A stretch of 64,000 bases of DNA from an uncultured Candidatus Rokubacteria bacterium. GTDB taxonomy: Bacteria; Methylomirabilota; Methylomirabilia; Rokubacteriales; CSP1-6. Positions 3,401 to 46,289 of this stretch are shown here, in pieces. The notes under the pieces are model-generated. The model made no database searches, was not told the DNA's origin, and saw only the letters and a program-made list of their open reading frames with translations. Each line of letters opens with the position of its first letter. Position 1 is the first letter of the stretch. The position numbers and the translations under genes were made by a program. The stretch is from assembly GCA_963747235.1 (NCBI GenBank), contig CAVVEU010000029.1:96001-160000 (forward strand), written 5' to 3'.

Positions 3401-3608
3401 CGTGCCGCTGGCGCTGGGCCAGGGCGTCGGCTCCGAGCTGCGCCAGCCGCTCGGCATCGCGATCGTGGGCGGGCTCATCATGAGCCAGCTCCTCACGCTC
3501 TACACCACCCCGGTGATCTACCTCGCCTTCGACCGGCTCGCCGCGCGCGCCACCCGGCGCCGCGCCGCCCCCGCGGGCCCCCTCGCCGCCGCGGAGCCCC
3601 GCGCGTGA
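490..3608 (+). CDS. mdtB: Multidrug efflux RND permease MdtB/MuxB (several frameshifts)
   Basis: [17 protein letters not shown]...[60 protein letters not shown]. The pieces lie in ORFs 25-3072, 1112-1438, 2831- and 3084-3608. Confidence 0.9.
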
Positions 3609-6600: not shown

Positions 6601-6748
6601 GCTGAGCCAGCTCCTCACGCTCTACACGACGCCCGTCGTGTACCTGTTCCTCGAGCGCTGGCGCTTGCGCACGGTGAGCGGCTGGCGCAAGCTCGGCGAG
6701 CGGCTCGGCGGGCGACGGCCCATCGAGCAGATCAGCGGCGGCAAGTAA
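3605..6748 (+). CDS. mdtC: Multidrug efflux RND permease MdtC/MuxC (many frameshifts)
   Basis: GTG start overlaps the mdtB stop (GTGA). [17 protein letters not shown]...[42 protein letters not shown]. It is the second RND paralogue in tandem, as in mdtABC. Confidence 0.88.
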
Positions 6749-10217: not shown

Positions 10218-10242
10218 CCTCCTCACGAAAGGCTGGCCTGCC

Positions 10243-11076: not shown

Positions 11077-11114
11077 TCCGGATCAGCCCCCGGCACCCCT
11101 TCAAGGAGACCACG

Positions 11115-12051: not shown

Positions 12052-12084
12052 GCCTCCCGGGTAGGCTGCCCTCCGGGTAGGCTG
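12051..12084. repeat. Short tandem duplication / hairpin after a stop codon
   Basis: CCGGGTAGGCTG at 12057-12068 and 12073-12084. AGCCT-N7-AGGCT (12051-12067) can form a small hairpin. Confidence 0.5.
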
Positions 12085-12111
12085 ACGGCGGGGGCAAGGC
12101 ATACTGAGCCC

Positions 12112-16875: not shown

Positions 16876-16891
16876 CCGGCGTCACCCGACG

Positions 16892-16937
16892 GGGTCAGGT
16901 CTTGCATTCCGACAATGTCGAATGTAAGACCTGACCC
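16892..16937. repeat. REP-like inverted repeat between convergent genes (possible bidirectional terminator)
   Basis: GGGTCAGGTCTTGCATTC (16892-16909) and GAATGTAAGACCTGACCC (16920-16937) form an 18-bp stem with one G-T pair. It is markedly more AT-rich than the flanking coding DNA. Confidence 0.8.
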
Positions 16938-29032: not shown

Positions 29033-29033
29033 C

Positions 29034-29900
29034 ATGCCGATCACGGTGACGCGCCTCAGCCCCTCCTTCGCCGCGCGCGTCGACGGCGCCGACATCAGCC
29101 GCCCGCTCGACGAGGCCACCTGGACCGCAATTCGCGCCGCGTTCGACGAGCACTCGGTGCTGCTCTTCCGCGGCGCCGGGCTCGACGACGAGACGCAGGT
29201 CGCCTTCAGCCGGCGCTTCGGCGCGCTCGAGGTCACCCGCAGCATGAACCCGGCCGCGGGCACCCCGTTCGCGCGCCAGTCGAACCTCGACATCAAGACC
29301 GGCCAGGTCATCCCCGCCGAGGACCGGCGGATGGTCTATCAGCTCGCGAACATGCTCTGGCACAGCGACAGCTCCTTCAAGCCGGTGCCCTCGCTCTGCT
29401 CGCTCCTCACCGGACGCATCGTGCCGCCCGAGGGCGGCGCCACCGAGTTCGCGAGCGCGCGCGCCGCCTACCCCTCGCTGCCGGAGGCGCTCCGGCGCCG
29501 CGCGGAGCACGCGGTCGTGGTCCACGATTTCTCCTGGTCGCGCGACCAGGTCCGGCCCGGCTTCTTCACCGCCGAGGAGCGCGCGGTGTACCCGCCGGTG
29601 CGCCATCGCCTCGTGCGCGCCAATCCGGCGAACGGGCGCCGCGCCCTGTTCCTGGGCGCGCACGCCTCCCACGTGGAGGGCCTGCCGGTGGACGAGGGCC
29701 GCGCGCTGCTGCGGACCCTGCTCGATCACGTGACCCAGCCCGAGTTCACGTACCGGCACGAGTGGCAGGCGGGCGATCTCGTGATCTGGGACAACCGCTG
29801 CGTCCTCCATCGCGCCACCCCGTTCGACACCGCCCGCCACCAGCGCCTCATGCAGCGGACCACCATCGCGGGCGATCCCGCGGAGCCGGTGGCGCGATGA
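29034..29900 (+). CDS. TauD/TfdA family Fe(II)/2-oxoglutarate dioxygenase (TfdA/SdpA-like)
   Basis: NMLWHSDSSF (HxD), PPEGGATEF, IWDNRCVLHRA, RTT. Confidence 0.9.
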   Translation: MPITVTRLSPSFAARVDGADISRPLDEATWTAIRAAFDEHSVLLFRGAGLDDETQVAFSRRFGALEVTRSMNPAAGTPFARQSNLDIKTGQVIPAEDRRMVYQLANMLWHSDSSFKPVPSLCSLLTGRIVPPEGGATEFASARAAYPSLPEALRRRAEHAVVVHDFSWSRDQVRPGFFTAEERAVYPPVRHRLVRANPANGRRALFLGAHASHVEGLPVDEGRALLRTLLDHVTQPEFTYRHEWQAGDLVIWDNRCVLHRATPFDTARHQRLMQRTTIAGDPAEPVAR

Positions 29901-30875
29901 AGCAGGTCCTGCTCGAGCGCTACGGGGCCCCCGCCGAGGCGGTCCGCTGCGTGGAGGTCCCGGACGTCGGCGCGCCCGCGGCGGGCGAGGTCGTCTTCGA
30001 CGTGCTCGCCTTCCCGATCAATCCCGCCGATCTCTCCATGTGCCGCGGGACGTATCGCTTGCGGCCCACCCTGCCGGCCGGCATCGGCGCCGAGTGCGTC
30101 GGGCGCGTGGCCGCGGTCGGCGCCGGCGTCACCCACGTCGAGCCGGGCGATCGCGTGATCAACCTGCAGCGCGAGAACTGGACGCAGCGGCGCCGCGTGA
30201 AGGGCGACGACGTGATCCCGGTGCCCGCGGGCCTGGACGATCTCCAGGCCGCCATGCTCCGCATCAACCCGCCCACCGCGCTGCTGCTGCTCACCGACAT
30301 CGTCGCGCTGCAGGCCGGGCGACTGGATCATCCAGAACGTGGCCAACTCGGCGGTCGGCCGCTTCGTGATCCGGCTGGCGCGGGCGCGCGGCATCCGGAC
30401 CGTGAACGTGGTGCGGCGCGAGTCGCTGTTCGGCGAGCTGACCGCGCTGGGCGCGGACGTCTGCGTGGTCGACGGCCCGGAGCTGGCCGACGTCGTGAAG
30501 GCGCGGACCGGCGGCGCGTCCATCCGCCTCGGCCTCGACGCGGTGTCGGGCCGCGCCACCGCGCGGATCTCGGCCTGCCTCGGCGAGGGCGGCGTGGTCT
30601 GCAACTACGGCTCGATGAGCGGCGAGGATCCGGTGATGCCGCGCGGCAAGCTGGTCGGCGACGGGCAGACCCTGGTCGGCTTCATCCTCGGGCGCGCGCT
30701 CGCCACCCGCTCGCTGGCCGAGATCCGGGCGATCTACGCGGAGCTCGGCGAGCAGGTCCGGCAGGGCCTCCTCACCGCCCCGGTCGAGAAGGTCTACACG
30801 ATCGACGAGATCAGGGCCGCGGTGGCGCACGCCGAGCACGGCGAGCGCGCCGGCAAGATCCTGGTCGCCCCGTAG
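29897..30875 (+). CDS. MDR-superfamily trans-2-enoyl-thioester reductase-like (MECR/Etr1-like) protein; frameshift ~30315
   Basis: FPINPADL, GAECVG, AAMLRINPPTA, IIQNVANSAVG, TVNVVRR, NYGSMSG. Confidence 0.82.
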
Positions 30876-30877
30876 GG

Positions 30878-31719
30878 TCAGCCGCGCATCGCGGCCGCGT
30901 AGGCGTCGAGCCGCGGCAGCACCGTCGTCGCGGGGCCCGCGCGGCAGGCCGAAGATGGCGCGCTGCACCCCCGCCGCCGCGAGCGCGTCGAGCGACTCCC
31001 GCTTGGGCGGCGCGAAGAAGATGGAGACCGGCACCGACTTCGGATCGCGGCCCGCCGCCTTCAGCCGCTCGCGCAGCGCGGGGATCTTCTCCACCGGGTT
31101 GGCGTGCGGGCGCAGGATCGGCATCCAGCCGTCGCCGAACTCCACCACGCGGTCGAAGGTGCTGCTCCCCATCGCCGCCGATGATGATCGGCGGGTGCGG
31201 CTTCTGCAGCGGCTTGGGATCGGACCAGATCTTCTCGAAACGGACGAACTCGCCCTGGTAGCTCGCCTCGCGCTCCGTCCAGATCTTCTTCATCGCGAGC
31301 ACCCGCTCGCGCAGCAGCCGCCAGCGGCTCTTCCACGCGGTGCCGTGGTTCTCCATCTCCTCGGCGTTCCAGCCGCCGCCGATGCCGAAGAGCACGCGGC
31401 CGCCCGAGAGCCGGTCGAGCGTGGCCACCTCCTTGGCGGTGACGATCGGATCGCGCTCGATCACGAGGCAGATGCCGGTGCCGAGCTTGAGGCGCTTCGT
31501 CGCGCCGGCCGCCGCCATCAGCGCGACGAACGGATCGTAGGCCGACCAGTAGTCGCGCGGCAGCTCGCCCCCGCCCGGCCACGGGCTCTTGCGGCTCGCC
31601 GGGATGTGCGTGTGCTCGGGAAACCACACCGATTCGAAGCCGCGCTCCTCGAGGGCGCGCGCCAGCTCGTCCGGGGCGATCGAGTACTCGGTGGGGAACA
31701 TGACGACGCCGTAGTCCAT
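30878..31719 (-). CDS. LLM-class probable F420-dependent oxidoreductase (Rv2161c-like); frameshifts
   Basis: GFESVWFPEHTHIP, DPFVAL, RDPIVTAKEVATLDRLSGGR, GGGWNAEEM, PKPLQKPHPPI. Confidence 0.85.
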
Positions 31720-31811
31720 GAGAAGCCCTCCTTCTCGTGCGTTGGCGATCAGCCTGGCGATTGGGCTGGGGGTTCGCGGGGGATTGTACTACCCTGTGCG
31801 GCGGACCGGCC

Positions 31812-32909
31812 ATGACCTCTCCTCGGCACGTCATCGTCTGCGGCGCCGGCGTGATGGGCGCCGCGGTGGCCTACTACCTGGCCCGGCGCGGCGTCGCGGT
31901 CACGGTGGTGGAGCGCTCCGGCGTGGCCTGCGCGGCCTCCGGCAAGTCCGGCGGGTTCCTCGCGCTCGACTGGTGCGACAACACGGAGGTGGGCCCGCTC
32001 GCCCGGCTGAGCTTCGCGCTGCACGCGGAGCTGGCGCGCGAGATCCCCACCGACTACGGCTATCGCCGGATGGACACCTACATGCTGGCCGCGCGGGAGA
32101 AGGGCGCGGTGGCGGGCGGGCACCGGATTCCCGCGCCGCGCTGGATCGATGGCCCCGCCGTCGTGGCGGGCGCGCTCGGCTCGACCGAGACGACGGCCCA
32201 GGTCCACCCCGCGCGCTTCACCACCGCGCTGATCGACGCGGCCCGTGAGCGCGGGGCCGAGCTCCGCAAGGGCGTCGTCCAGGCCGTGACCACGCGCGGC
32301 CGCGCGGTGAGCGGCGTCACGGTGGACGGCGAGACGCTCGAGGCCGACGCGGTCGTCCTCGCGATGGGCCCGTGGACGGGGCGCGTGAAGGGCCTCGCCC
32401 TGCCGGCGATCCACGGGCTCAAGGGCTACAGCGTGACGCTCACCGCCGCCGACGTGCCCGCGCACGCGCTCTTCATGGACTACCGCCTGGCCGACGGCCG
32501 CGCGCTCGAGCCCGAGATCATCCCGCGCCCCGACGGCACCGTCTACGTGTGCGGGATGGCCGATCGCCAGCCGCTGCCGGAGTCCGCGGAGGGCGTGGAG
32601 GTGAGCGACGCCGGCTGCGCCACGCTGGCCCGCGCGGCCGGGCGAGTGTCCGCCGCGCTGGCCGCCGCGCCCATCGAGCGCCGCCAGGCCTGCTACCGCC
32701 CGATCGCGGAGGACGGCATCCCGCTGATCGGCCGCGTCGGCGGCGCGGCGGGCGCGTACGTGGCGACCGGCCACGGGCCGTGGGGCATGCTGAACGCGCC
32801 CGGCACCGGCCTGGCGCTGGCCGAGCTCATCACGGACGGCCGCGCCACGTCGCTCGATCTCGAGGCCTTCGACCCCGCCCGGCTGCCCGCCGGGCCGGTG
32901 TACCATTAG
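31812..32909 (+). CDS. FAD-dependent oxidoreductase, DAO family (Tda3-like subfamily)
   Basis: ICGAGVMG, ACAASGKSGGFLALDW, TTAQVHP, AMGPW, QACYRP, ATGHGPWGMLNAPGTG. Confidence 0.85.
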   Translation: MTSPRHVIVCGAGVMGAAVAYYLARRGVAVTVVERSGVACAASGKSGGFLALDWCDNTEVGPLARLSFALHAELAREIPTDYGYRRMDTYMLAAREKGAVAGGHRIPAPRWIDGPAVVAGALGSTETTAQVHPARFTTALIDAARERGAELRKGVVQAVTTRGRAVSGVTVDGETLEADAVVLAMGPWTGRVKGLALPAIHGLKGYSVTLTAADVPAHALFMDYRLADGRALEPEIIPRPDGTVYVCGMADRQPLPESAEGVEVSDAGCATLARAAGRVSAALAAAPIERRQACYRPIAEDGIPLIGRVGGAAGAYVATGHGPWGMLNAPGTGLALAELITDGRATSLDLEAFDPARLPAGPVYH

Positions 32910-32936
32910 CCGACCGAACGGACCGGAGGTGTCACG

Positions 32937-34485
32937 GTGAGACCTGTCCTCCTTCGTCGCGCGCTCATTGCCGTCATCGCCCTGCTCCTGATCCCCGCGC
33001 TCCGCGCGCCCGCCGCCGCGGCGCCCGAGGGCACGCTCACGTGGGGGCTCCACGTCACGCTGGCCACCAAGTGGCTCGACCCGAGCGACACCGAGGCGTT
33101 CATCAACCCGTTCATGGTGCTCTACGCCGTGCACGACGCGCTGGTGAAGCCGATGCCGGGCGGGGAGAACACCCCGAGCCTGGCCGAGTCCTGGACGGTC
33201 TCCAGGGACGGGCTCGTCTACGAGTTCGTCCTGCGCAAGACCGCGAAGTTCCACAACGGCGATCCGGTGACCGCGGACGACGTGAAGTTCTCCTTCGAGC
33301 GCTACAAGGGCGCCGCCGCCAAGCTGCTCAAGGACCGTGTGCGCGACGTCGAGATCGTGGACGCCGGGCGCGTGCGCTTCCACCTCCGGGAGGCGTGGCC
33401 GGACTTCATGACCTTCTACGGCACGTCCGCCACCGGCGCGGCGTGGATCGTGCCCACGCAAGTACGTGGAGAAGGTGGGCGACGACGGCTTCAAGAAGGC
33501 GCCGATCGGCGCGGGCCCGTACCGGGTGGTGAGCTTCAACCCGGGCATCGATCTGGTGATGGAAGCGTTCGAGGGCTACTGGCGAAAAGTCCCCTCGGTC
33601 AAGCGCCTCGTCTTCCGCAGCATGCCCGACGAGACCACGCGCGCCGCCGCGCTCAAGGCGGGCGACGTGGACATCGTCTATCTCCTGAGCGGTCCCAACG
33701 CCCAGGAGGTCAAGCGCACGCCGGGCCTGCGGCTCGCCGCCGCCATGCCGCCCGGCGTGATCTTCCTCGACCTGCCCGAGCAGTGGGATCCGAAGTCGCC
33801 GTGGCACGACCGGCGCGTCCGGCTGGCCGCGAGCCATGCCCTCGACCGCGACGGGCTCAACCAGGCGGAGACGCTCGGCCTCTCGCATCCCACCGGCGGC
33901 CTCATCCCGCGCGTCCTCGATTTCGCGCGGGCGTACCCGCCGCCCGCCTACGACCCCGCCCGGGCCAAGAAGCTTCTCGCCGAGGCCGGCTATCCCAACG
34001 GCTTCGACGCGGGCGACCTCACCCCGTTCCCGCCATTCTTCTCGCTGGCCGAGGCGATCGGCGGCTATCTCCAGGCCGTGGGCATCCGCACGCGCCTGCG
34101 CACCATGGAGCGCGCCGCCTTCCTCACCGCGTGGCGCGAGCACAAGATCCGGGGCGTGATCATGGGCCTGGGCGCGCCCGCGGGCAACGCGGCCACGCGC
34201 ATCGAGGTCTACGTGACCAAGAACGGCATCTATTCGTCGGGGGTGGTCCCGGAGATCGAGACGCTCTTCGAGCGGCAGGCCCGCGAGCTGGACCGCAAGA
34301 AGCGCGAGGGCATGCTCCATCAGATCCAGCAGATCATGCAGGACCGGGCGATGTACGTGCCCATTTACGAGCTCGCGTTCCTCTGGGGCATCGGCCCGCG
34401 GGTGGAGGAGGCGTGCGTGGACCACATCAAGGGCTTCTCGTACTCGGCGCCGTACGAGGATCTCCGGCTCAAGGCCCCGCGGTAA
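32937..34485 (+). CDS. Family 5 ABC solute-binding protein (frameshift ~33455)
   Basis: Signal peptide; LAESW, KFHNGDPVTADDVKFS, PIGAGPY, DRRVRLA; SD GGAGG. Confidence 0.88.
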
Positions 34486-34509
34486 CTCCGCTCCCACAGG
34501 AGAGACCCC

Positions 34510-35353
34510 ATGGATATCGTCGACTCGCAGGTGCATCTCTGGGCCGCGGAGAGCCCCAGCCGGCCGTGGCCGGCCGGGCGCGCGGCGGAAGCGCAGAAGC
34601 CGTACCAGATCCTCAAGGAGACGCTGCTCTTCCAGATGGATCTGGCCGGCGTGCGCCGGATGGTCCTGGTGCCGCCCTCGTGGGAAGGCGATCGCAACGA
34701 CATGGCGCTCGAGGCCGCGCGCAGCTACCCGGACCGGTTCGCGGTCATGGGACGCCTCGCGCTGCAAGATCCGGCGAGCCGCGCGCTCGTGGCCGACTGG
34801 CGGAAGCAGCCGGGCATGCTCGGCATGCGCTTCACCTTCCACAACGAGCACTACCGCCACCTGCTCACCGACGGCTCCGCCGACTGGCTCTGGGCCGCCG
34901 CCGAGAAGGCGGGCATCCCGCTTGATGGTCCTGGTGCCGGGCGCGCTCGATCACCTCGATCGCATCGCCACCCGGCATCCCGGCCTCAAGCTCGTGATCG
35001 ACCACGTGGGCATCAGCGTGCGCGGCAAGGCGCCCAAGGTCTTCGAGGAGCTGCCCGCGGTCTGCGCGCTGGCCAAGCACCCGAACGTGTCGGTGAAGGC
35101 CTCGGGCATGGTGTCGCTCTCGGCCCAGCCCTACCCGTTCCCGGACCTGCACGACGGCATCCGCCGGCTGGTGGACGCCTTCGGGCCCAGGCGCACGTTC
35201 TGGGGCACCGATCTCACCCGCATGCCGTGCACCTACTACGAGTGCATCACGCTCTTCACCCAGCACCTGCCGTGGCTCAAGGGCGAGGATCTGGACTACG
35301 TGATGGGACGCGGCGTCTGCGAGTGGCTCGGCTGGCCGCTCGCGCGCGCCTGA
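34510..35353 (+). CDS. Amidohydrolase_2 family protein (frameshift ~34922)
   Basis: IVDSQVHLW, LVPPSWEG, GMRF, LVIDHVG, PNVSVKASG, FGPRRTFWGTD. Confidence 0.85.
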
Positions 35354-35366
35354 GGGCCCGCGCGCG

Positions 35367-36417
35367 ATGCGATTCGGCCTCTTCTTCCAGGCGTCGGAGC
35401 GGGCCGGCGAGAGCCACGCCCAGCGCTTCACCGAGATGCTCGAGCTGGCCACGCTCGCCGACTCGCTCGGCTTCGACGTGGCCTGGCTCGCCGAGATCCA
35501 CTTCGGCGCCGCCTTCTCGCTGCTCTCCACCCCGCTCATGGCGGTGCCCGCGATCGCCCAGCGCACGAAGCGCATCCGCGTCGGCACCGCGGTGACGCTG
35601 CTGCCGCTGCACCACCCGCTCGCCTGCGCGGAGCAGGCGGCCACCGCGGACATCCTCTCGGGCGGCCGCCTCGAGTTCGGGGTGGGCCGCGGCTCCATTC
35701 CCACCCAGTTCCACGGCTTCCGGGTGCCCGTCTCGGAGAATCGCGCGCGCTTCGCGGAGTGCCTCGACATCATCCGCCTGGCCTGGACGAAGGACCGCTT
35801 CAGCTACGACGGGACGTTCTACCAGATCGAGAACCTCTCGGTGGTGCCGAAGCCGCTCCAGCGCCCGCACCCGCCCATCCGGGTGGCCGTGCACACGCCG
35901 GAGAGCTTCGCCCACATCGCGGAGCTGGGCGTGCCCATCTACTCGGGCACGACGACCACCCCGCTGCCGCTGCTGCGCGAGTGCATGGCCGCGTACCGGG
36001 AGAAGCTCGCCGCGGCCGGGCACGCGTGGGGCCCCGAGCAGATGGCGCTGATGCAGCCGCTGCACATCGGGGCCACCTCCGCGGCGGCGCGCGACGCGAT
36101 GCGGCCGGGGGTGATGCAGTACTACAAGAACCTGGAGACGATCTTCTCGAGCCTGCCCGACTCCTACGCGCGATCACCTGCCCCGGCTCAAGTACATCCG
36201 GGAGACGATCGCCGATCTGCCCTACGAGAAGTTCTGCCGCGACCAGGCCGTGTTCGGCGACGCCGCGGAGGTGGTGGACCGGCTGCAGCGCGCGAAGGAA
36301 GAGTTCGGCCTCTCGCAGATCATCGGCTGGTTCGACCAGGGCGCGATGCTGCCGCGCGCCGAGGTCGAGCGCGCGATGCGCACCTTCGCCGAGCAGGTGA
36401 TGCCGAAGCTCGGCTAG
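35367..36417 (+). CDS. LLM-class flavin-dependent oxidoreductase (frameshift ~36170)
   Basis: MRFGLF, WLAEIHF, IRVGTAV..LPLHHP, DILSGGRLEFGVGRG, PKPLQRPHPP, FAEQVMPKL. Its stop overlaps the stop of the convergent gene (CTAG). Confidence 0.85.
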
Positions 36418-37679
36418 CCCGCGTAGATCTTCTTCATCTCGCCGGTCGCCCAGGCGACCGCGTCCTCCGCCTTCATGCCCTGGATGCTCTTGGCGAACAT
36501 GTCGACCAGGATGTACTTCGACAGCGCTTCCGTCGCCTTGCGCCCGGGAGGCCCGGCGAAGCCGACCTGTCGCGCGTACTGCAGGGTCTCGGGAAACACC
36601 GCCGTCTTCGGGTCCTTCTTCCACAGGGCGTGGTCGCGGTAGCTCTTGGTGCCGGGGATGCCGAACGTGTCCATGATCTCGAAGTACTTGTCGTACTGCG
36701 CGCGGTCCATGTACCAGCGCACGAAGTCCTTCGCGACCTTCTGGTTCTTCGAGTACTTCATCACGCAGGAGTTGTAGCAGGGCAGGAAGTAGAAGCGGCC
36801 CGCGGGGCCGGGCGGATAGTGGCCGTGGTTCGTGCCCTTGTAGACGTCGGGGAACTTGGCCCGCGCCGCGATGTAGATCGACGGCGCATTGCCGGTGAGC
36901 GAGATCTCCGAGGAGAGAAACGCGCGGTTGTTGTTGCTGTCGTCCCACGCGAGCCCGCCCTCGTCGAAGCAGTCCTTCCACGCCGCCAGCGTGAACTTCA
37001 CGGCCTCGACCGTGTTCTTGCTGTTCAGCACGACCGTCTGGCCGTCCTTCCCGACTTCCATCCCGCCCCACATCCAGACGATCGGGTACGCCCAGGCGTT
37101 GGGATCGTTGAGGCTGTGCCCGAACGCCTGGCCGAACGGCCGGCCCTTCGCCTTCATGGCGCGGCCCACCTTGCGGAAGTCGTCCCAGGTCTTCGGATAC
37201 TCGAGGCCCGCTTCCTTGAACCAGTCTTCCCGGTAGTTGACCGCCCACGAGATGATGAAGTACGGAACGCCGACCCAGCGCCCGCCACTCGTCAGGCAGT
37301 TGCTCTTGGGGAGGTCGTACCACCCACCCTGCTGGCCGCCGATCGCCTCGGCGACGTCGGTCATGTCGACGAGGCTGTTCTCGTAGAGGAGCGGATGATT
37401 GTTCGCGATGGTCACGATGTCGGCGCCGCTCCCGCTCTGGATCGCGGCGGTGACGCGGGCCTGGATGTCGTTCTGATTGATGCGCTCGGCGACGACCTCG
37501 ACGCCCGCCTGCTTGCCGAACTCCTTCGCCTGCTGGTCGAAGAGCTGATCCGCCGCGGGGACGAAGTGCGCCCACTGGAGGACGTGGAGCCGCGTGCCCT
37601 GCGCGAAGGCGGGCGGGTGATGCGCGGCGAGCATGGTGGAGAGGGCGGCGCTGCCGGCGATGAAGCGTCGACGGTTCAT
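36414..37679 (-). CDS. Family 1 (carbohydrate-type) extracellular solute-binding protein with Tat signal
   Basis: MNRRRFIAG Tat motif; LQWAHFVPAAD, NYREDWF, PKTWDD, AWDDSNNNRAFL. Confidence 0.88.
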   Translation of the reverse strand: MNRRRFIAGSAALSTMLAAHHPPAFAQGTRLHVLQWAHFVPAADQLFDQQAKEFGKQAGVEVVAERINQNDIQARVTAAIQSGSGADIVTIANNHPLLYENSLVDMTDVAEAIGGQQGGWYDLPKSNCLTSGGRWVGVPYFIISWAVNYREDWFKEAGLEYPKTWDDFRKVGRAMKAKGRPFGQAFGHSLNDPNAWAYPIVWMWGGMEVGKDGQTVVLNSKNTVEAVKFTLAAWKDCFDEGGLAWDDSNNNRAFLSSEISLTGNAPSIYIAARAKFPDVYKGTNHGHYPPGPAGRFYFLPCYNSCVMKYSKNQKVAKDFVRWYMDRAQYDKYFEIMDTFGIPGTKSYRDHALWKKDPKTAVFPETLQYARQVGFAGPPGRKATEALSKYILVDMFAKSIQGMKAEDAVAWATGEMKKIYAG

Positions 37680-37695
37680 GGCGGATCCTCCGGTC

Positions 37696-38403
37696 TCAGG
37701 TGTCCAGAAGGGCGAGCACCTCGTCGGCTCTCCGCACCCGGCCGAACGGACCCTGGAACGAGAGCAGGGTGGCCTCGTGGATCTCGGGTGAGAAGGCGGC
37801 GCACCCGTCGTCGAGCAGCACCACCTCGTAGCCGCGATCGGCGGCGTCGCGCGCGGTGGTCTCCACGCAGACGTTCGTCACGACGCCGCCCACGATCAGG
37901 GACGTGATGCCCATCGAGCGCAGGGCGTGATCGAGCCCCGTCGAGTTGAACGTGCCGTAGGTCGTCTTGTTCACCACGAGCTCGTCCGGCCGCGGCTCGA
38001 GGCTCGCGACGATGCGAGCCCAGGCGTCGCCGCGCGGGGGGATGGCGGCGTCACCGACCGCCGCCCGGTTGGCCGCGTTCCGTTGCTGGAAGATCGGCAT
38101 CAGGTCGCGGCCATCGGGCAGCTCCGAGGCCACGGTGGTGTAGACGACGCGTAGCCCATGGGCCCGGAAGAAGTCGAGCAGCCGACGGAGCGACGGCTCG
38201 ACGACGCCCCGACCGCGCTCCTGGAAGTGGCTCATCACGCCCGGAACGATGGCCTCGCAGGCCCGCGAGAACGGCGAGGCCGGGTTCACGAAGTACTCCT
38301 GCATGTCGATGATCACGAGCGCGGTGGTGCGGGGATCGAGCGCCAGGGGCCCCGCATTGCGGTGGCGCTGAAGGGCCGTGTACTTATCGTGCGCGGTGCT
38401 CAC
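37696..38403 (-). CDS. Cysteine hydrolase (isochorismatase family)
   Basis: TALVIIDMQ (Asp), VNKTTYGTF (Lys), GVVTNVCVETTARDAADRGY (Cys). Confidence 0.9.
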   Translation of the reverse strand: MSTAHDKYTALQRHRNAGPLALDPRTTALVIIDMQEYFVNPASPFSRACEAIVPGVMSHFQERGRGVVEPSLRRLLDFFRAHGLRVVYTTVASELPDGRDLMPIFQQRNAANRAAVGDAAIPPRGDAWARIVASLEPRPDELVVNKTTYGTFNSTGLDHALRSMGITSLIVGGVVTNVCVETTARDAADRGYEVVLLDDGCAAFSPEIHEATLLSFQGPFGRVRRADEVLALLDT

Positions 38404-38425
38404 TATCCTGTCCCCCGTGCCCGGG

Positions 38426-38455
38426 ATACTGCTCCCGGCCCCGGCGACGTGTCAA
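38426..38455 (-). promoter_or_regulatory. Putative sigma70-type promoter for the cysteine hydrolase / SBP genes
   Basis: Minus strand TTGACA (38455-38450), 18 nt, CAGTAT (38431-38426), upstream of the GTG at 38403. Confidence 0.4.
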
Positions 38456-38481
38456 GAAGAGGAGTACAGTGGGGAGCCAGG

Positions 38482-39745
38482 ATGGACACCCCAGCGCAGA
38501 TCGCTCCTGACAGCTCCAAGCTCGCGGTGGTGATGGTCGGCCTGCCCGGCCCGCGGGAAGAGCTACACCGCGCGCCGCATCGAGCGCTACCTCTCGTGGC
38601 TCGGCTACCGCACCGGCGTCTTCAACGTCGGCGAGTACCGGCGCGCGCGCGTCGGCGCCCAGATGCCGCACAGCTTCTTCGATCCCGACAACGCGCCGGG
38701 CGAGGAGGCGCGCCGGGCGGCCGCGATGGCGGCGCTCGACGACATGGTGGCGTGGCTCACCGACGACGGGCAGGTCGCGATCTACGACGCCACCAACACC
38801 ACGCGCGCGCGCCGCGCGATGGTGCGCGCGCGCTGCGAGCAGGCCGGCTTCCAGGTGCTGTTCATCGAGATCCGTTGTGATGACCCGCACTTCATCGAGG
38901 CCAACATCCGCGACACCAAGCTGTCGTCGCCCGATTACGAGGGCACCGATCCCGACGCGGCGGTGACCGACTTCCGGGCCCGCATCGCGCACTACGAGCG
39001 CGTGTACCAGCCGCTCGACGACGACGAAGGCGCGTACCTGCGCGTCACCGGCTCCGGACGCGACGTCACCGTGAGCAACGTCAACGGCTACCTGGCCGCG
39101 CGCCTCGTGTTCTTCCTGATGAACCTGCACCTGACCGCGCGGCCGATCTGGCTCACCCGCCACGGCGAGAGCGTGTTCAATGTCGCCGGGGTGCTCGGCG
39201 GCGATCCCGACCTGACCCCCGCCGGCCACCGCTACGCCCGATCACTCGCCGAGTTCCTCGACCGGCGCGACCCGGATCGCGACGGCGTGGTGGTCTGGAC
39301 GAGCTCGCTCCGGCGCGCGGTACAGACCGCGGCGCCGCTCGATCGCACGCGGTGGCCGTGGCGCGCGCTCGACGAGATCGACGGCGGCGTCTGCGACAGC
39401 ATGAGCCACGCCCAGATCCAGGAGCGCCTGCCCGAGGAGTACGCGGCGCGCAAGCGCGACAAGTTCACCTATCGCTATCCACGCGGCGAGTCGTACCAGG
39501 ACGTGATCCTGCGCCTCGACCCGGTGGTCATCGAGCTCGAGCGCACGCGCAAGCCGGTGCTGGTCATCGCCCACAACGCGGTGCTCCGCGCGCTCTACGC
39601 GTACTTCCAGGGCCTGCCGCGCGAGCGCTGCCCGTACCTGCCCATTCCGCTGCACACCGTGATCGAGCTGACGCCGCACGCGTACGGCTGCCACGAGACG
39701 CAGATTCCGCTCGAGCCGCGGCTCGACTCGCGCGACGCGCGGTAG
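38482..39745 (+). CDS. Bifunctional 6-phosphofructo-2-kinase/fructose-2,6-bisphosphatase (PFKFB type), ~420 aa; single extra base near 38549
   Basis: Removing one G restores VMVGLPARGKSY (Walker A). Kinase motifs FNVGEYRR, YDATNTT, KLSSPDY, DFRARI. Phosphatase motifs RHGES, VWTS, LDEIDGG, YRYPRGESYQD, IAHNAVLR, PLHTVIELTP.AYGC. Confidence 0.9.
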
Positions 39746-39961
39746 CCCGACCGGCCCGCAGGTTCGGGCACGGCACACGGCCGGATCGGGCAGAAAGTCG
39801 CCCGAGCGGCAGCCACTCCTTCCGAAAGGTCCGTCATGTCGAGATAGTGGGCGGTGGCATGCCCCTTGCCCCAAGGCTCAGAGACGCCCGGCGCGGCCCC
39901 CAAGCGTCGGGCCGGGCGTTCGCCCCTCGTCCAACGGACCACGACTTGGAGGAACGCGATC

Positions 39962-40951
39962 ATGGGCGCGACGAGACGCAGACTGAGCTGGTGGTGGAGC
40001 ATCCTGGCCCTGCCCGGCATCCTGTGGCTTCCGGCGGTCGCCGGAAGCGCGGCGCGGGAGGTGGCCGGCATCATCACCGAGATCCACCCCGGGCGCGGGC
40101 AGGTCGAGGTCAGGTCGGCTGAAGGCGACCGCCGGCGCGCCGCGACACCTCTCCTTGCCCTGAGGAGCGGTGACGAGGTGAGCACGACCGAGGATGCGTG
40201 GGTGATCATCGTGCTGTCCGGCGGGCGTGGAAGCGCGAGAGTCGACGAGGCCCATTCCCCGTTCACGGTTCCCGCCCCGCCGGTCGGGCGCAGCCTGCTT
40301 CACAAGGGACTGCGGGTCCTCGAAGCGAGCTTCGACTTCCTGGGGACGACGACCCCGAGCGATCCGACGTTCGGGCCCCTGGGCACTCGATCAGGGGCGA
40401 AGCCGCCCGTGATCTTGACCCCTCACAATGGCCTCGTGCTCCCCGATTCCCTGACCTTCGAGTGGCGCGGGAGCCCGTCTTCGGCGTACCGCATTCGCAT
40501 CAGCGGGCCCGATGGCCTGGTGTTCGAGCGCACGAATCTCGCCGCGACCCGATTCCAGTACCCTCGGAACGCGCCACCACTCACCGCGGGCGTCCGATAC
40601 GGGTTCCAGCTCCTCCCGCCCTGGGGCCCGCCCCAGGACGTGTGGTTCGAGCTGGTCGACCCGGACCGCGCCCAGACGATCCTCCATGAGCTGCACGACC
40701 TGGAAGATGCGTTCGCCCCTGCCCTGTCACCCGCTTCTCTGGTGACGCTCCGGGCCGGGTTTCTGGCGGGCAACGGTCTGCTGCACGATGCCCGTCGGAC
40801 CCTCATGGAGGAGCTTGCCCGGCAGCCCGATGAGCCCACCCTGCACTTCCTCCTGGGCAACCTCTATGCGCGGCAGGGTCTTCGCTCGGAGGCAATGGAG
40901 TCATTCGCGGAGTCGAGATTTCTCATGAGTGCTGTTGCCAACCCCCGGTAG
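39962..40951 (+). CDS. Secreted hypothetical protein (FecR-like N-terminus, DUF928-like middle, TPR-like C-terminus)
   Basis: SD GGAGG; signal peptide; ALRSGDEVST; LGTRSG...LTP..G....TFEW; C-terminal helix LHFLLGNLYARQGLRSEAMESF. Domain labels are from motif resemblance only. Confidence 0.55.
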   Translation: MGATRRRLSWWWSILALPGILWLPAVAGSAAREVAGIITEIHPGRGQVEVRSAEGDRRRAATPLLALRSGDEVSTTEDAWVIIVLSGGRGSARVDEAHSPFTVPAPPVGRSLLHKGLRVLEASFDFLGTTTPSDPTFGPLGTRSGAKPPVILTPHNGLVLPDSLTFEWRGSPSSAYRIRISGPDGLVFERTNLAATRFQYPRNAPPLTAGVRYGFQLLPPWGPPQDVWFELVDPDRAQTILHELHDLEDAFAPALSPASLVTLRAGFLAGNGLLHDARRTLMEELARQPDEPTLHFLLGNLYARQGLRSEAMESFAESRFLMSAVANPR

Positions 40952-40962
40952 CGCGGCCGGGT

Positions 40963-42103
40963 CTACCGGCTGCCCGGCGTGACGCGGAGGAGGCGGCCGT
41001 TGGGGCTGTCGTCGGTCAGGAGATAGATGGCGCCGTCCGGGCCCTCGCGCACGTCGCGGATGCGCTCGCGGAGCTCCGCCAGGTAGCGCTCCTCCCGCAC
41101 CACGCGGCCGTTCGCGAGCCGCAGCCGCACGAGCCCGCCCGGGGTGAGCGAGCCGACCAGGAGGTCGCCCTTCCAGTCCGCGAACGCGCGGCCCGAGTAG
41201 AAGGTCGCGCCGGACGGCGCGATGACCGGATCCCAGTAGTAGACGGGCTGCTCCATGCCCGGCTTCGCGGTGCCGATCCCGATGCGCGCGCCCGAGTAGT
41301 CCACCCCGTAGGTGATGACCGGCCAGCCGTAGTTCTTGCCCGGCTGCGGGTTGTTGAGCTCGTCGCCGCCGCGCGCGCCGTGCTCCACCGTCCACAGCTC
41401 GCCGCGGGCGTCGAGCGCCGCCGCCTGGACATTGCGATGGCCGTAGGACCAGATCTCCGGCAGCGCGCCGGCGCGACCGACGAACGGATTGTCGCGTGGC
41501 ACCGAGCCGTCCGCGTTGATGCGCACGACCTTGCCGAGCGTCGTCGAGAGATCCTGCGCGCGGTCGCGATGGCCGATAGCGGTCGCCGATCGTGACGAAG
41601 AGCGTGCCGTCCGCGCGGAAGACGAGGCGCGAGCCCCAGTGATTGGGCCCGTCCACCTTCGGCTGCTGGCGCCAGATCACCTGGGTGCCCTCGAGGCCGC
41701 GCTCGCCGAGCCGCCCGCGCGCCACCGCGGTGCCCGCGCCGCCCGGGCCCGGCTCCGAGAACGAGAGGTAGACGAGCTTGTCCTGCGCGAAGCCGGGGCT
41801 GAGCGCCACGTCGAGCAGACCGCCCTGCCCGCGCGCATACACCTCGGGCACGCCGATCAGGGGCGCCGAGAGGCGCCCATCACGGTCGACGATACGCAGG
41901 CGCCCCGGCCGCTCGGTCACGAGGAAGCGCCCGTCGGGCAGCAGCGCCACGCCCCAGGGATGCTCGAGCCCGCGCGCGACGTCGGTGACGGTCGCGGCCA
42001 GCTTGACCGCGGCGGGCGTCGGCGAGCGCGGCGCCTCCTGCGCGAGCGCGGGCAGGACGAGGAGGGCGAGCGCCGGCAGGACGGCCGCGACGCGCCCCGG
42101 CAC
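40963..42103 (-). CDS. PQQ-dependent soluble sugar dehydrogenase (YliI/Asd family); frameshift ~41575
   Basis: [60 protein letters not shown]. Confidence 0.9.
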
Positions 42104-43299
42104 TAGAAGCTGACCGGCAGCGCCTGCAACCCGCGTAGCGTCAGGCTCTGGCGGAACTGGGGCTGGTCGGTGGCCAGGGCCAGCTTCGGCAGCCGCGCGA
42201 GCAGCGTGTTGATCGCGATCTGCCCCTCCATGCGCGCGAGCGGCGCGCCGAGGCAGAAGTGGATGCCCATGCCGAACGCGATGTGCCGGTTGTCGGCGCG
42301 CGTGATGTCGAGGCGATCCGGATCGGGGAACTGGGCGGGGTCGCGGTCGGCCGCGCCCAGGAACGGCATCACCATCTCGCCCTTGGGGATGGTCCGGCCG
42401 CCGATCGTGAGGTCCTCGCTCGGGATGCGCGCGGTGCGCTGCACGGGCCCGTCGAAGCGCAGCAGCTCCTCGACCGCGGTGACGATGAGGCCGGGGTTCT
42501 CGCGCAGCTTCTGGAGCTGGTCGGGATGGCGCAGCAGCGCCAGCGTGCCGTTGCCGATCAGGTTCACGGTGGTCTCGTGGCCGGCCACCAGCAGCAGGAT
42601 GCAGGTGGCGAGCAGCTCTTCCTCGTTGAGCTTGTCGCCGGCCTCCTCCGCCGCGATGAGGGCGGAGAGCATGTCGTCGCGCGGAGCTGCCCGCCGCTCC
42701 GCGATCAGCTCGCGGAAATACTCGGCGAGGGCCCGCCGGCCGGCGACGCTGCGCTGGCCCACCTCCGAATCGGCCGGCAGCATGATCGCGTCGAGCCCAC
42801 GGGCGATGTCGAGGCCCCAGGCCTTGAAGCGCTCGTGGTCTCGCACCGGAACGCCCAGCATCTCGCAGATGACGCGCACCGGGAGCGGATACGCGAACTC
42901 CTCGATCAGGTCCATCTGGCCCGCCCCGGCGGCATCGGCCAGCAGCTCATCCACGATCGTCTGGATGTGGGGGCGCAGGCTCTCGAGCGCCTTCGGCGTG
43001 AAGGCCTTGCTGACCAGGCCGCGCAGGCGCGTATGGTCCGGCGGGTCGCGGTCCAGCATGGAGAGCCCCAGGCCCGGCGGCGGGACCGCCATGCCGAAGC
43101 GCGCGGCCACGAAGGCGGCGATGGGCTCCTTGGTGAGGCGCGGGTCGCGCAGCATGGTCATCACGTCCGGGTAGCGCGTCAGCACCCAGAACCCGAGCGG
43201 GCTGTGGTGGACGGGATCCTCGGCCCGCAGGCGATGGTAGGTCGGGTACGGGTCCGCCACGAACGCGGGATCCATCGGGTTGAACTGGACGTCGGCCAT
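42103..43299 (-). CDS. Cytochrome P450
   Basis: DPPDHTRLR, AGHETT (I-helix), EELLRFD (ExxR), HIAFGMGIHFCLGA (haem Cys). Confidence 0.95.
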   Translation of the reverse strand: MADVQFNPMDPAFVADPYPTYHRLRAEDPVHHSPLGFWVLTRYPDVMTMLRDPRLTKEPIAAFVAARFGMAVPPPGLGLSMLDRDPPDHTRLRGLVSKAFTPKALESLRPHIQTIVDELLADAAGAGQMDLIEEFAYPLPVRVICEMLGVPVRDHERFKAWGLDIARGLDAIMLPADSEVGQRSVAGRRALAEYFRELIAERRAAPRDDMLSALIAAEEAGDKLNEEELLATCILLLVAGHETTVNLIGNGTLALLRHPDQLQKLRENPGLIVTAVEELLRFDGPVQRTARIPSEDLTIGGRTIPKGEMVMPFLGAADRDPAQFPDPDRLDITRADNRHIAFGMGIHFCLGAPLARMEGQIAINTLLARLPKLALATDQPQFRQSLTLRGLQALPVSF

Positions 43300-43381
43300 T
43301 GAGCGCTTCCCTCCCGCGCCCATCATACATCTGCTATCTTCTCGGCAACCCCCTCACCGGCAAGCACGGAAAGGACAGGCC

Positions 43382-45029
43382 ATGGCCACGATCACGGGAT
43401 CGGAAGTGCTGGCGCAGGCGCTCAGGTCGCAGGGCGTGGACACGATGTTCTATCTCATGGGCGGCCCCATGCTCGAGACCGAGGCGGCCTGCATCAAGCT
43501 CGGCATCCGCGCCATCGACACGCGCCACGAGCAGGCCGCGGCCCTGGCCGCGCATGCCTGGACGCGCGTGACGCGGCGCCCCGGCGTGGCCATGGGCTGC
43601 TCGGGCCCCGGCGCCATCAACCTGGCCACCGGCGTGGCGAACGCCTTCACCGACTGCGCCCCGCTGATCGCCATCGGCGGGTCGAGCCCGCGCGTGTTCC
43701 TCGGCATGGAGGCCTTCCAGGAGATCGACCAGGTCGCCCTGATGAAGCCCATCACCAAGTGGACGGAGCGCATCTACGACGCCAAGCGCATCCCCGACGT
43801 GGTGGACACCGCGTTCCGCCAGGCGACCACCGGCCGGCCCGGCCCCGTGTACATCGACATGCCGGGCGACATCCTGGGCGAGAAGATCGAGGAGGACCAG
43901 CTCCACTACCCCGGTCCGTGGAAGCCGGCGCCGCGCAGCCTGGGCGATCCGAACGCGGTGCGCGAGGCCATCGCGCTGCTCGCGCAAGGCCGAGCGCCCG
44001 GTGGTCATCGCGGGCAGCGGCGTGTGGTGGTCCGACGGCGCCGCCCAGCTCCAGGCCTTCGTGGAGGCCACCGGCATCCCGTTCTACACCACGCCGATCT
44101 CCCGCGGCCTCATCCCGGAGGATCACGAGCTCGCGTTCCTGAACGCGCGCAGCACGGCCTTCACCGAGGCCGACGTGGTGCTGGTGGTCGGCACGCGGTT
44201 CAACTGGGTGATCCAGTTCGGCCGCCCGCCGCGCTTCGCCGCCGATCTCAAGGTGATCCACGTGGACATCAACCCGACCCAGCTCGGCCACAACCGTGAA
44301 GTGGATGTTCCCATCGTCGGCGACGCGCGCGCGGTGCTGGAGCAGCTCCGCGCGGAGGCCGAGGGCAAGATCACGCCCAAGCGCTACGCGGCCTGGACCG
44401 GCAAGCTGCGCACGCTCGACGCCGAGAAGGGCGCCGAGCAGGACAAGGCCATGAGCCGCGAGGAGACGCCGATCCACCCGCTGCGGCTCTGCAAGGAGAT
44501 CCGCGACTTCATGCGGCGCGACGGCATCCTGGTGGTGGACGGCCAGGAGATCCTGAACTTCGGCCGCCAGGCCATCCCGACCTACGTCGCCGGCCACCGG
44601 CTGAACTCGGGCGCGTTCGGCACGATGGGCGTTGGCCTGCCCTTCGGCGTGGGCGCGAAGGTCGCCAAGCCCGACGCGCAGGTGCTGGTGCTGCACGGCG
44701 ACGGCTCCTACGGCATCAACGCGATGGAGATCGACACCGCGGTGCGACACAAGATCCCGGTGGTCGTCGTCATCAGCAACAACGGCGGCTGGACCGCGGA
44801 CGCGCCGTGGACGCGCCCTCTGCCCAAGCCCGGGCGCAACCTCGGCCACACCCGCTACGACCGCGTGGCGCAGGAGCTGGGCGCGCACGGTGAGTACGTG
44901 GAGAAGCCGCACGACATCCGCCCCGCGCTCGAGCGCGCGTTCGCCTCGGGCAAGCCGGCGGTGGTCAACGTCATCACCGATTCCAAGGCGCGCGCGACGA
45001 CGGTGCGGTTCTCGGCGTACACGACGTAG
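43382..45029 (+). CDS. ThDP-dependent enzyme of the oxalyl-CoA decarboxylase / 2-hydroxyacyl-CoA lyase clade (frameshift ~43985)
   Basis: RHEQAA, SGPG, AFQEIDQ, GRPGPVYIDMPGD, LNSGAFGTMGVG, GDGSYG...NNGG, TRYD. Confidence 0.85.
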
Positions 45030-45045
45030 CGGGAGACCCTCGATC

Positions 45046-46242
45046 ATGGCCCAGGCCCTCGACGGGATTCGTGTCCTCGACCTGACCCAGTACGAAGCGG
45101 GCCCGAGCTGCACCCAGATGCTGGCGTGGCTCGGGGCGGAGGTCATCAAGATCGAGCCGCCCACCGGCGAGCCCGGCCGCACCGCGCTGTCCGACAAGCG
45201 CGGCGAGGACGCGTGGTTCTTCCTGCTGCTCAACTCGTGCAAGAAGGGCGTCACGCTCAATCTGAAGTCGGAGCGCGGGCACGCCATGTTCCTCGACCTG
45301 GTGAAGACCGCCGACGTACTGGTCGAGAACATGGGGCCGGGCGCGATGGATCGGCTCGGCCTGGGCTGGGAGGCGCTGCACCAGCTCAACCCGCGGCTGA
45401 TCGCGGCCTCCGTGAAGGGCTTCGGCGGCGGCGGGCCCTACGCCGACTACAAGAGCTTCGAGTGGATCGCCCAGGCCATGGGCGGCGCCATGAGCATGAC
45501 CGGCTCGCCCGACGGCCCGCCGACCAAGGCCATCGGCGGCCTCGCCGACACCGGCGCGGGACTGCACACCGCGATCGGGATCCTGGCCGCCATCATCCAG
45601 CGCCAGGCCACCGGCGTGGGGCAGCAGGTGGAAGTCGCCCAGCAGGAGTCGGTGGTGAACCTCCTCCGCATCCATCTGCGCGAGAGCTACGCCACCGGCA
45701 AGCCGGCCCCGCGCCAGGGCAATCGTTCCGCCGCCGCCGCGCCGTCCAACATCTACCGCTGCCAGCCCGGCGGGCCCAACGACTACGTGTTCATCCACTG
45801 CGCCACCGTGGACATGTGGAAGGCGCTGACGAAGATCGTCGGCCGTCCCGAGATGGCCGACGACACGCGCTACCACGACCGGCGCGACCGCGTGCAGATC
45901 GTGGACGAGATCGACGCGATGATCGAGGCGTGGACCGAGACGCGGACGAAATTCGAGGTGATGGAGATCATGGCCGGCGCCGGCGTCCCCTGCGGCGCGG
46001 TGCTCGACTCCACCGAGATCCTGGCCGACCCGCACATGCGCAAGCGCCGCTTCATCGTGGATCTGGAGCACCCGCGGCGCGGCCCCTATCCGATGCCGGG
46101 CAACCCGGTGCGCCTCTCCGACTCCCCCACCGAGGTCGGCCGCTCGCCTCTTCTGGGCGAGCACAACGCCGACGTCTACGGCCGCCTCCTCGGCTACAAG
46201 CCCGAGGCCGTCGACCAGCTGAAGCGCGACGGCATCATCTAA
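45046..46242 (+). CDS. Family III (CaiB/BaiF) CoA transferase, formyl-CoA transferase-like
   Basis: IRVLDLTQ, GPSCTQMLAWLGAEVIKIE, ADVLVEN, LNPRLI, AQAMGG, catalytic Asp in GLADTGAG, PLLGEH. Confidence 0.9.
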   Translation: MAQALDGIRVLDLTQYEAGPSCTQMLAWLGAEVIKIEPPTGEPGRTALSDKRGEDAWFFLLLNSCKKGVTLNLKSERGHAMFLDLVKTADVLVENMGPGAMDRLGLGWEALHQLNPRLIAASVKGFGGGGPYADYKSFEWIAQAMGGAMSMTGSPDGPPTKAIGGLADTGAGLHTAIGILAAIIQRQATGVGQQVEVAQQESVVNLLRIHLRESYATGKPAPRQGNRSAAAAPSNIYRCQPGGPNDYVFIHCATVDMWKALTKIVGRPEMADDTRYHDRRDRVQIVDEIDAMIEAWTETRTKFEVMEIMAGAGVPCGAVLDSTEILADPHMRKRRFIVDLEHPRRGPYPMPGNPVRLSDSPTEVGRSPLLGEHNADVYGRLLGYKPEAVDQLKRDGII

Positions 46243-46254
46243 CCCGCACCTCCA

Positions 46255-46289
46255 CCCTCTCCCCTCAGGGGAGAGGGCAGGGTGAGGGG
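46255..46289. repeat. Palindromic extragenic repeat, copy 1
   Basis: CCCTCTCCCC-TCA-GGGGAGAGGG (46255-46277) followed by CAGGGTGAGGGG. Confidence 0.8.

Follow-up and report, generated by a model that had tools for sequence, protein, structure and literature searches.

We report that a 64-kb stretch of DNA from an uncultured bacterium of the phylum Methylomirabilota (contig CAVVEU010000029.1; the whole stretch is referred to here as the window) carries a real, bacterial gene for 6-phosphofructo-2-kinase/fructose-2,6-bisphosphatase (PFK-2/FBPase-2, the PFKFB family), probably intact and acquired secondarily by the genus. The gene is located at 38482-39745 on the plus strand and encodes a 6PF2K and a His_Phos_1 domain in 420 codons plus a stop once one extra base is removed; all coordinates are positions in the window unless the contig of another genome is named. 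We hold with good confidence that a bacterial PFKFB branch common in the Polyangiales was transferred to this genus and inherited there with relocation, and that the frameshift in the assembled copy is an insertion error, the whole protein probably being made.

The literature that we searched treats fructose-2,6-bisphosphate (Fru-2,6-P2) as eukaryotic, with one bacterial exception in passing. Rider et al. (2004) reportedly noted a homologue in Desulfovibrio desulfuricans, which we know through a citing passage. In the relevant excerpt of that citing paper, D. desulfuricans is mentioned in passing as a bacterial occurrence of the PFK-2/FBPase-2 system (PMC9721465). A literature search combining Sorangium or myxobacteria with 6-phosphofructo-2-kinase or fructose-2,6-bisphosphate returned nothing relevant.

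A two-domain PFKFB protein encoded in the window

The main-frame translation (P0001; 38534-39742, plus strand), to which residue numbers such as K9 and H210 refer throughout, is open for 403 codons (403 aa). Against Pfam it matched 6PF2K (PF01591; E-value 1.1e-69) over residues 5-201 and His_Phos_1 (PF00300; 2.1e-38) over residues 205-386, which places the 6-phosphofructo-2-kinase domain at 38546..39136 and the fructose-2,6-bisphosphatase (histidine phosphatase) domain at 39146..39691, both on the plus strand. The two domains thus follow each other in the order typical of PFKFB proteins, with 6PF2K N-terminal and His_Phos_1 C-terminal in a single chain; an NCBIfam search of P0001 gave no model at cut-off. 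Among solved structures the best matches were human PFKFB3, human PFKFB2 and the rat testis and liver enzymes (E-values from 9.5e-114 to 1.8e-108). The alignment to the human PFKFB3 chain 6iby (9.5e-114) is colinear over residues 4-392 of P0001, with a largest gap of 4 residues and no intron-like gaps, and the same two-domain order is found in the vertebrate PFKFB1-4 enzymes (human PFKFB3, 2AXN and 6IBY; rat testis enzyme, 1BIF and 3BIF). PFKFB3-like and PFKFB2-like vertebrate representatives are 47% and 45% identical to the window protein and have identical catalytic residues. The window protein is shorter, at 420 aa vs 520 aa for chain 2axn_A, and lacks the N- and C-terminal regulatory tails. 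The G+C content of the gene region is 0.70-0.71, equal to that of its surroundings, and third-position G+C (GC3) of the main frame is 0.95. In all these respects the description given in the first-pass annotation, a protein of about 420 aa colinear with the PFKFB core, free of tails and introns and with GC-rich codon usage like that of the host, holds.

The kinase and phosphatase motifs listed there are likewise all readable in the translation (FNVGEYRR, YDATNTT, KLSSPDY, RHGES, LDEIDGG, YRYPRGESY and AHNAV). In the assembly the Walker A motif is divided between two frames: MVGLP is read in the one opened by the ATG at 38482, ARGKS in the main frame. The frame that starts at this ATG reads MDTPAQIAPDSSKLAVVMVGLP and then unrelated residues; the N-terminal peptide MDTPAQIAPDSSKLAVVMVGLP sits in an open reading frame (ORF) at 38158..38880 and aligns with the N-termini of nine relatives. 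The start codon and 22 N-terminal codons, which encode this peptide, occupy 38482..38548 (plus strand) in the frame that precedes the extra base, and 5 nt 5' of the ATG the sequence reads as a probable Shine-Dalgarno-like element, GGGGAG (38471..38476, plus strand). The Walker A motif is missing from the ORF list, as had been remarked before, because the first start codon of the main frame occurs only at 38663, from where the ORF 38663..39745 is open. The gene ends with a TAG stop codon (39743..39745, plus strand), directly 3' of which RNA folding predicts two G+C-rich hairpins without a U run (39739..39810, plus strand; -38.1 kcal/mol, z -2.49, equal stability in 2 of 200 shuffles), which may serve as a terminator or mark a boundary.

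A single extra base in a probably insertion-prone assembly

The start of the gene was aligned with nine loci of the same genus, and at the position where the window reads CTGCCCGGCCCGC all nine read CTG-CCGGC... The surplus base that the first-pass annotation had placed near 38549 is an extra C in the run CCC at 38545..38547 (plus strand), which is CC in 9/9 same-genus loci; it breaks the frame and interrupts the Walker A loop GxxxxGK[ST] in the assembly. We also compared soil-metagenome contigs at a likeness of at least 88%; the share of sampled words present in any one run was at most 0.34. The base at 38545 is absent from two contigs of run X1 (13.8 of a depth of 17.1), from one of X3 (9.4 of 9.4) and from one of X2 (5.06 of 5.06), and the site is uncovered by the contigs of run X15. 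The remaining 3.3 of the 17.1 X1 depth shows no deletion; the contig that accounts for it may carry the extra base, may end beside the site, or may derive from the same strain or data as the assembly.

Single-base insertions are frequent in this assembly. A Pfam search of 121 stop-to-stop ORFs of the window, picked by third-position G+C, revealed at least eight other genes split across same-strand frames with consecutive profile ranges: ACR_tran (1-3605), a second ACR_tran in at least six pieces (about 3620-6745), Bac_luciferase (10218-12048), DUF748 (12052-16931), ADH (29033-30872), SBP_bac_5 (32910-34482), GSDH (42946-40966) and a TPP enzyme (43241-45026). The host gene for an ATP-type phosphofructokinase (PFK), on contig C39, is split across frames in the same manner. 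The window was then aligned with colinear DNA from two many-contig relatives of the same genus, G015 and G020, which yielded 27 insertion or deletion events in 15,106 aligned bases (22 of them not multiples of three) and 36 in 12,033 (31 not multiples of three), respectively. Six isolated single-base events are common to both comparisons, and in 6/6 it is the window that has the extra base (30924, 31161-3, 34923-4, 36169, 41576-7 and 43985-7). The genome to which the window belongs consists of 42 contigs (G000; 5.57 Mb, 88% complete), and disturbed copies of the PFKFB gene are also present in other few-contig genomes of the genus, the gene lying in two frames in G013 and having lost its stop in G008. 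Longer insertions were observed near the start of a minus-strand luciferase-like gene at 31758-31792, namely 24 bases relative to G015 and G020 and 11 bases relative to G015.

Because none of the nine orthologues has the extra base, and because many other single-base insertions split genes of the window, the PFKFB frameshift most likely arose during assembly, and as an insertion error of a few-contig assembly it leaves an organism that probably makes the whole 420-aa protein. The first-pass annotation had itself raised the prospect of a real frameshift, which would make the gene a recent pseudogene of this strain or restrict its product to 360 aa from the ATG at 38663, devoid of the P-loop and retaining the phosphatase domain. 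We regard this as rather unlikely. It would be in keeping with the CCC of the assembly, with the X1 depth that shows no deletion, with the open ORF 38663..39745, and with the finding that 7 of 20 genomes of the genus are without a strong copy, from which it follows that gene loss does occur. However, gene-splitting extra bases are frequent in the window and recur against two independent relatives, a pattern that the site at 38545 fits, and the 1.26 kb of the gene contain no further disabling change, while divergence from relatives bears the mark of purifying selection. Programmed frameshifting was considered as well and ruled out, as 9/9 orthologues read straight through. Given the frequency of single-base insertions, frameshifted genes in this assembly should not be taken as pseudogenes without a read check.

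Conservation of the active-site residues

Residues were compared in an alignment of 78 distinct bacterial rows, drawn from 86 extracted genes, and 7 eukaryotic rows of vertebrate, amoebozoan and plant origin; duplicates, rows shorter than 380 or longer than 520 aa and three minus-strand loci were left out. In the kinase domain the window keeps K9 and S10 of the P-loop as well as R36, R37, R60, D85, N88, R93, K129, R150 and Y154, which match in 52-78 of the 78 bacterial and in 6-7 of the 7 eukaryotic rows. Position 10 is T in 59 and S in 19 bacterial rows; the vertebrate rows have T, the window S. In the numbering of the rat testis kinase we take the window residues to correspond to K51, T52, R78/R79, R102, D128, R136, K172, R193 and Y197. 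In the phosphatase domain R209, H210, N216, R261, E281, R306, K310, R314, H347 and R352 are kept, and R209-H210-G211, E281 and H347 are invariant (78/78 bacterial and 7/7 eukaryotic rows). All the catalytic residues that were checked are kept by the window protein, and 70-78 of the 78 bacterial rows have them too; the vertebrate rows share the catalytic and Fru-6-P-binding kinase residues of the window with the exception of position 10. Judging by their position relative to the rat testis chain, the kept residues presumably comprise the ligands of ATP, fructose-6-phosphate (Fru-6-P) and Fru-2,6-P2 together with the phospho-histidine triad.

Two positions of the phosphatase pocket differ from the vertebrate enzymes. 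In the block that binds the 6-phosphate, R306, K310 and R314 are kept and the tyrosine is replaced by H292 (Y292H; codon given as 39355-39357), a position presumed here to be a 6-phosphate contact in the rat enzyme. It is Y in 76/78 bacterial and 7/7 eukaryotic rows and H in 2/78, and the substitution, common to the two nearest relatives (L002 and L003), is a lineage-specific change. The second position, 348, is N in the window (Q348N); among the bacterial rows it is Q in 66 and N in 11.

Ratios of nonsynonymous to synonymous substitution rates (dN/dS) against 12 orthologous loci range from 0.24 to 0.36 and are similar in both domains, which indicates purifying selection; the strong codon bias probably lowers dS. 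Two runs labelled as RNA, X2 and X15, also have contigs that match parts of the gene at 88-99% likeness, but transcription cannot be read from contigs, and the libraries may contain DNA.

Since the catalytic and most of the substrate-binding residues are kept in both domains, the chemistry predicted from the alignment, synthesis and hydrolysis of Fru-2,6-P2, is likely. We weighed against it the alternative that the PFKFB fold acts here on another sugar phosphate, or that only one of its activities is relevant, in which case Fru-2,6-P2 would not be a regulator in these bacteria. The Y292H and Q348N changes in the sugar-phosphate pocket of the phosphatase would suit such a view, as would the replacement of R60 by L in 26/78 bacterial rows, the lack of a host PFK with a eukaryote-type Fru-2,6-P2 site, and the Joint Genome Institute (JGI) label of many members, which is just 'broad specificity phosphatase PhoE/predicted kinase'. 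The window, however, keeps R36, R37, R60, R93, K129, R150 and Y154 of the kinase and all ten phosphatase residues named above, which vertebrate, amoebozoan and plant rows share but for one plant exception at K129, and we consider a different substrate or a single relevant activity unlikely.

Distribution among bacteria

Within its own lineage, 40 relatives were searched, 20 from the same genus and 20 that belong to different genera of its family and order, a match with an E-value below 1e-80 being counted as strong. Thirteen of the 20 other genomes of the genus contain a strong match, with orthologues 81-91% identical. The 20 genomes outside the genus have no strong match, and the search found only weak histidine-phosphatase matches in them. 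At the level of the phylum 16 of 251 genomes exceeded the 6PF2K cut-off; 14 of these belong to the genus (its own genome included) and two are marginal partial matches (28.6 and 32.4 bits).

Outside the phylum the first-pass annotation's view that bacterial homologues are sporadic does not hold. Among 8000 scored candidates 2752 proteins matched at an E-value of 1e-3, the best 120 of which are all two-domain proteins of 308-467 aa with 69-92% identity, and a library clustered at 50% identity yielded 1185 representatives at 1e-30 or better. In prokaryote contigs sampled as one genome per species, at least 599 stretches matched our patterns and at least 562 encode a relative. The best 80 of the latter include the complete genomes of Sorangium cellulosum So ce56 and So0157-2, many other Sorangium strains, Minicystis rosea DSM 24000, Polyangium isolates and metagenome-assembled genomes (MAGs) of Byssovorax, this cultured and Byssovorax set being 55-61% identical to the window protein. 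Of 401 Myxococcota genomes sampled around Sorangium, 82 contain a strong 6PF2K match (1e-30 or better). NCBI already names several relatives 6-phosphofructo-2-kinase/fructose-2,6-bisphosphatase, among them a Methylomirabilota MAG protein at 84% identity. The gene therefore belongs to an already annotated family that is common in the Polyangiales (Myxococcota). In the ESM Atlas, two-domain clusters of Thermodesulfobacteriota with 339 and 182 members were found, which we regard as a lead only.

The Polyangiales proteins (Sorangium, M. rosea DSM 24000, Polyangium and Byssovorax) are about 410-425 aa long, with the same architecture as the window protein and equally tail-less, and those of uncultured Polyangiales/Myxococcales MAGs reach 64-75% identity to it. 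The Polyangiales proteins differ from the window protein in host phylum and in gene location: the Sorangium gene (L033-L051) occurs about 46-55 kb from the record start, its one position and context being kept in about 15 genomes, whereas the window's genus has no fixed site for the gene.

Some taxon labels call for comment. Close homologues were found in MAGs labelled Nitrosopumilus, Burkholderiales, Rickettsiales, Alphaproteobacteria and 'archaeon' (L027, L024, L062, L049 and P0307), which represent either further transfers or binning errors. Three further loci (L015, L017 and L026) are labelled as other phyla, yet their sequences match the genus of the window.

Phylogeny and origin of the gene

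Rows for the trees were hand-picked, fragments and the frame-broken representatives P0139, P0213 and P0215 being left out, and most of the library representatives included carry no taxon name. In a quick IQ-TREE analysis of 76 rows the window groups with three rows of its genus (support 99), inside a nine-row clade (100) that also contains four rows from Polyangiales/Myxococcales MAGs and one labelled Burkholderiales. A second, more thorough analysis, in which 38 rows were bootstrapped and the tree had eukaryotic sequences as outgroups, recovers the genus clade at 100/100 and places it inside clades of 18 and 20 rows (100/98), the other named rows of which are again Polyangiales/Myxococcales MAGs and one row labelled Burkholderiales.

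The first-pass annotation had suggested ancient transfer or a relative of the ancestral enzyme. Within the phylum the gene is strong in one genus only, and the clade of this genus nests in Polyangiales-type sequences, which argues for transfer between bacteria and against both direct eukaryotic descent and an ancestral form. The most economical reading of the trees is that the gene entered the ancestor of the genus by transfer from a Polyangiales-type donor. The split between the bacteria and the seven eukaryotic rows has a support of 63/55 in the 38-row tree, and we therefore claim neither a direction nor a partner for a deep inter-domain transfer. In the 76-row tree the bacterial groups fall into a set of low support that also includes long proteins without a name, which are probably fungal. 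The amoebozoan PFKFB proteins form a clade of their own (98 in the 76-row tree, 96/91 in the 38-row tree) with no supported sisterhood to the bacterial sequences. Those of Acytostelium, Dictyostelium, Balamuthia and Planoprotostelium have N-terminal extensions of about 130-180 aa, and the Acytostelium core is 57-60% identical to Polyangiales proteins, about as near as it is to other Amoebozoa.

Genomic context and the variable segment

The flanks of the gene are colinear with the two same-genus genomes G015 and G020 at 89-92%, in agreement with the bacterial neighbours described by the first-pass annotation. Contig C843 of G015 is colinear with 28000-37697 and 40955-46288 of the window at 92%, these blocks being separated by 73 bp; contig C57 of G020 is colinear at 89-90%, and 78 bp replace 36415-40963 of the window. 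Eukaryotic contamination or a chimeric contig join, also contemplated at the outset, would have in its favor that every top match among solved structures is an animal PFKFB, but it is contradicted by G+C and GC3 values like those of the host, by the lack of introns, by the colinear flanks, by the 81-91% identical orthologues in 13/20 genomes of the genus and by relatives at 58-61% identity in complete genomes of cultured Sorangium and Minicystis. It is exceedingly improbable that the segment was joined in this way; the contig is bacterial and eukaryotic contamination is excluded.

The segment absent from the colinear G015 locus (37698..40954) comprises an isochorismatase gene (37696-38403, minus strand; Pfam), the PFKFB gene and an ORF of 365 aa (39854-40951, plus strand). 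The third-position G+C of this ORF is high; it matched no Pfam family at 1e-5 and has an 83% DNA match in G011. In G015, G020, G019, G011 and G004 the PFKFB gene occurs on other contigs, where DNA similarity to the window starts at 38479-38496 and ends at 39745-39774, that is, essentially with the ORF alone. Nucleotide identity to these five relatives is 87-92% for the gene and 84-95% for the flanks. Since the identity of the gene lies in the range of the flanks, recent exchange or spread within the genus was rejected; the data fit a gene inherited within the genus at about the genome's own divergence while changing its chromosomal site.

The variable spot at 36415-40963 is located between a gene for a luciferase-like monooxygenase and one for a pyrroloquinoline quinone (PQQ)-type sugar dehydrogenase, and its four genes were found at separate places in relatives. 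In G011 the 365-aa ORF and a solute-binding protein gene occur in an order different from that of the window.

Proposed activity and candidate targets

From its conserved residues, the N-terminal P-loop kinase would phosphorylate Fru-6-P at C-2 with ATP as donor, and the C-terminal domain would hydrolyse Fru-2,6-P2 via a phospho-histidine on H210, assisted by E281 and H347. Lacking phosphorylation tails, the enzyme would have to be controlled by its substrates or possibly by the Ser/Thr kinases that are abundant in myxobacteria.

We searched the host genome for enzymes on which the metabolite might act. It encodes a PPi (pyrophosphate)-type PFK on contig C2 (GGDD...PKTIDND; open frame of 424 aa), the frameshift-split ATP-type PFK on C39 (GGDG; open frame of 350 aa) and a class I fructose-1,6-bisphosphatase (FBPase) on C40 (PF00316, 1.6e-47); GlpX was not found in this genome, which is 88% complete. 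Class I FBPase is present in 5/5 other holder genomes tested as well, and its presence does not discriminate between the readings considered. At G000:C2:106791-110741 (L012) the PPi-type PFK gene (1225-2499, minus strand) overlaps the end of a class I fructose-bisphosphate aldolase-like gene (2468-3871, minus strand), a pair that suggests reversible PPi-based upper glycolysis.

Fru-2,6-P2 acts on class I FBPase as an active-site analogue, and the Escherichia coli FBPase is inhibited by it. The host PFKs have open frames of 350-424 aa and are therefore without the duplicated half in which the Fru-2,6-P2 site of eukaryotes lies, a further difference from systems with vertebrate PFKFBs. Because the bacterial PFKs have no such effector half and Fru-2,6-P2 is an analogue at the FBPase active site, the host class I FBPase would be the simplest target, to be inhibited by Fru-2,6-P2 as a substrate analogue, and the host PFKs would be less likely targets. 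In eukaryotic PFK, the Fru-2,6-P2 site arose from the duplicated half, which is missing in bacterial enzymes, as stated in the section of PMC12203962 dealing with this point.

Flanking ORFs of 80 named loci were clustered in a neighbourhood survey. Shared neighbours were encountered only in Sorangium genomes and comprise a Ser/Thr kinase, a PBP1A-like protein, an RpoN-like protein and two unknowns.

Conclusions

Several findings weigh against a transferred, intact gene whose product makes and degrades a signal. In addition to the X1 depth without a deletion at 38545, the frame is broken in the only readable copy of the window strain, Y292H could alter the affinity of the phosphatase, and the MAG taxon labels, on which the naming of tree rows depends, may reflect binning errors. 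The host PFKs are of single length, and no duplicated, eukaryote-type PFK-1 was found among them; moreover, the bacterial PPi-PFKs characterised so far are all non-allosteric according to the passage concerned in PMC12203962. No metabolic operon and no conserved neighbours pointing to a pathway were detected around the 80 named loci, and no biochemical study of a bacterial PFKFB came up in our literature search, which covered few of the subscription journals.

For its family the gene is unremarkable: hundreds of bacterial species genomes carry one. What becomes testable is whether any bacterium uses Fru-2,6-P2. We tentatively suggest that it may be a working signal in some bacteria, namely the Polyangiales and this soil genus of Methylomirabilota, where a tail-less PFK-2/FBPase-2, which the latter would have received by transfer, might set Fru-2,6-P2 levels that in turn gate class I FBPase or PPi-PFK. 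An enzyme in which both active sites are intact is encoded by 82 of the 401 Myxococcota genomes, those of cultured Sorangium strains among them, which makes Sorangium a practical organism for such a test. If the suggestion is true, these bacteria would possess a prokaryotic counterpart of a circuit regarded as eukaryotic.

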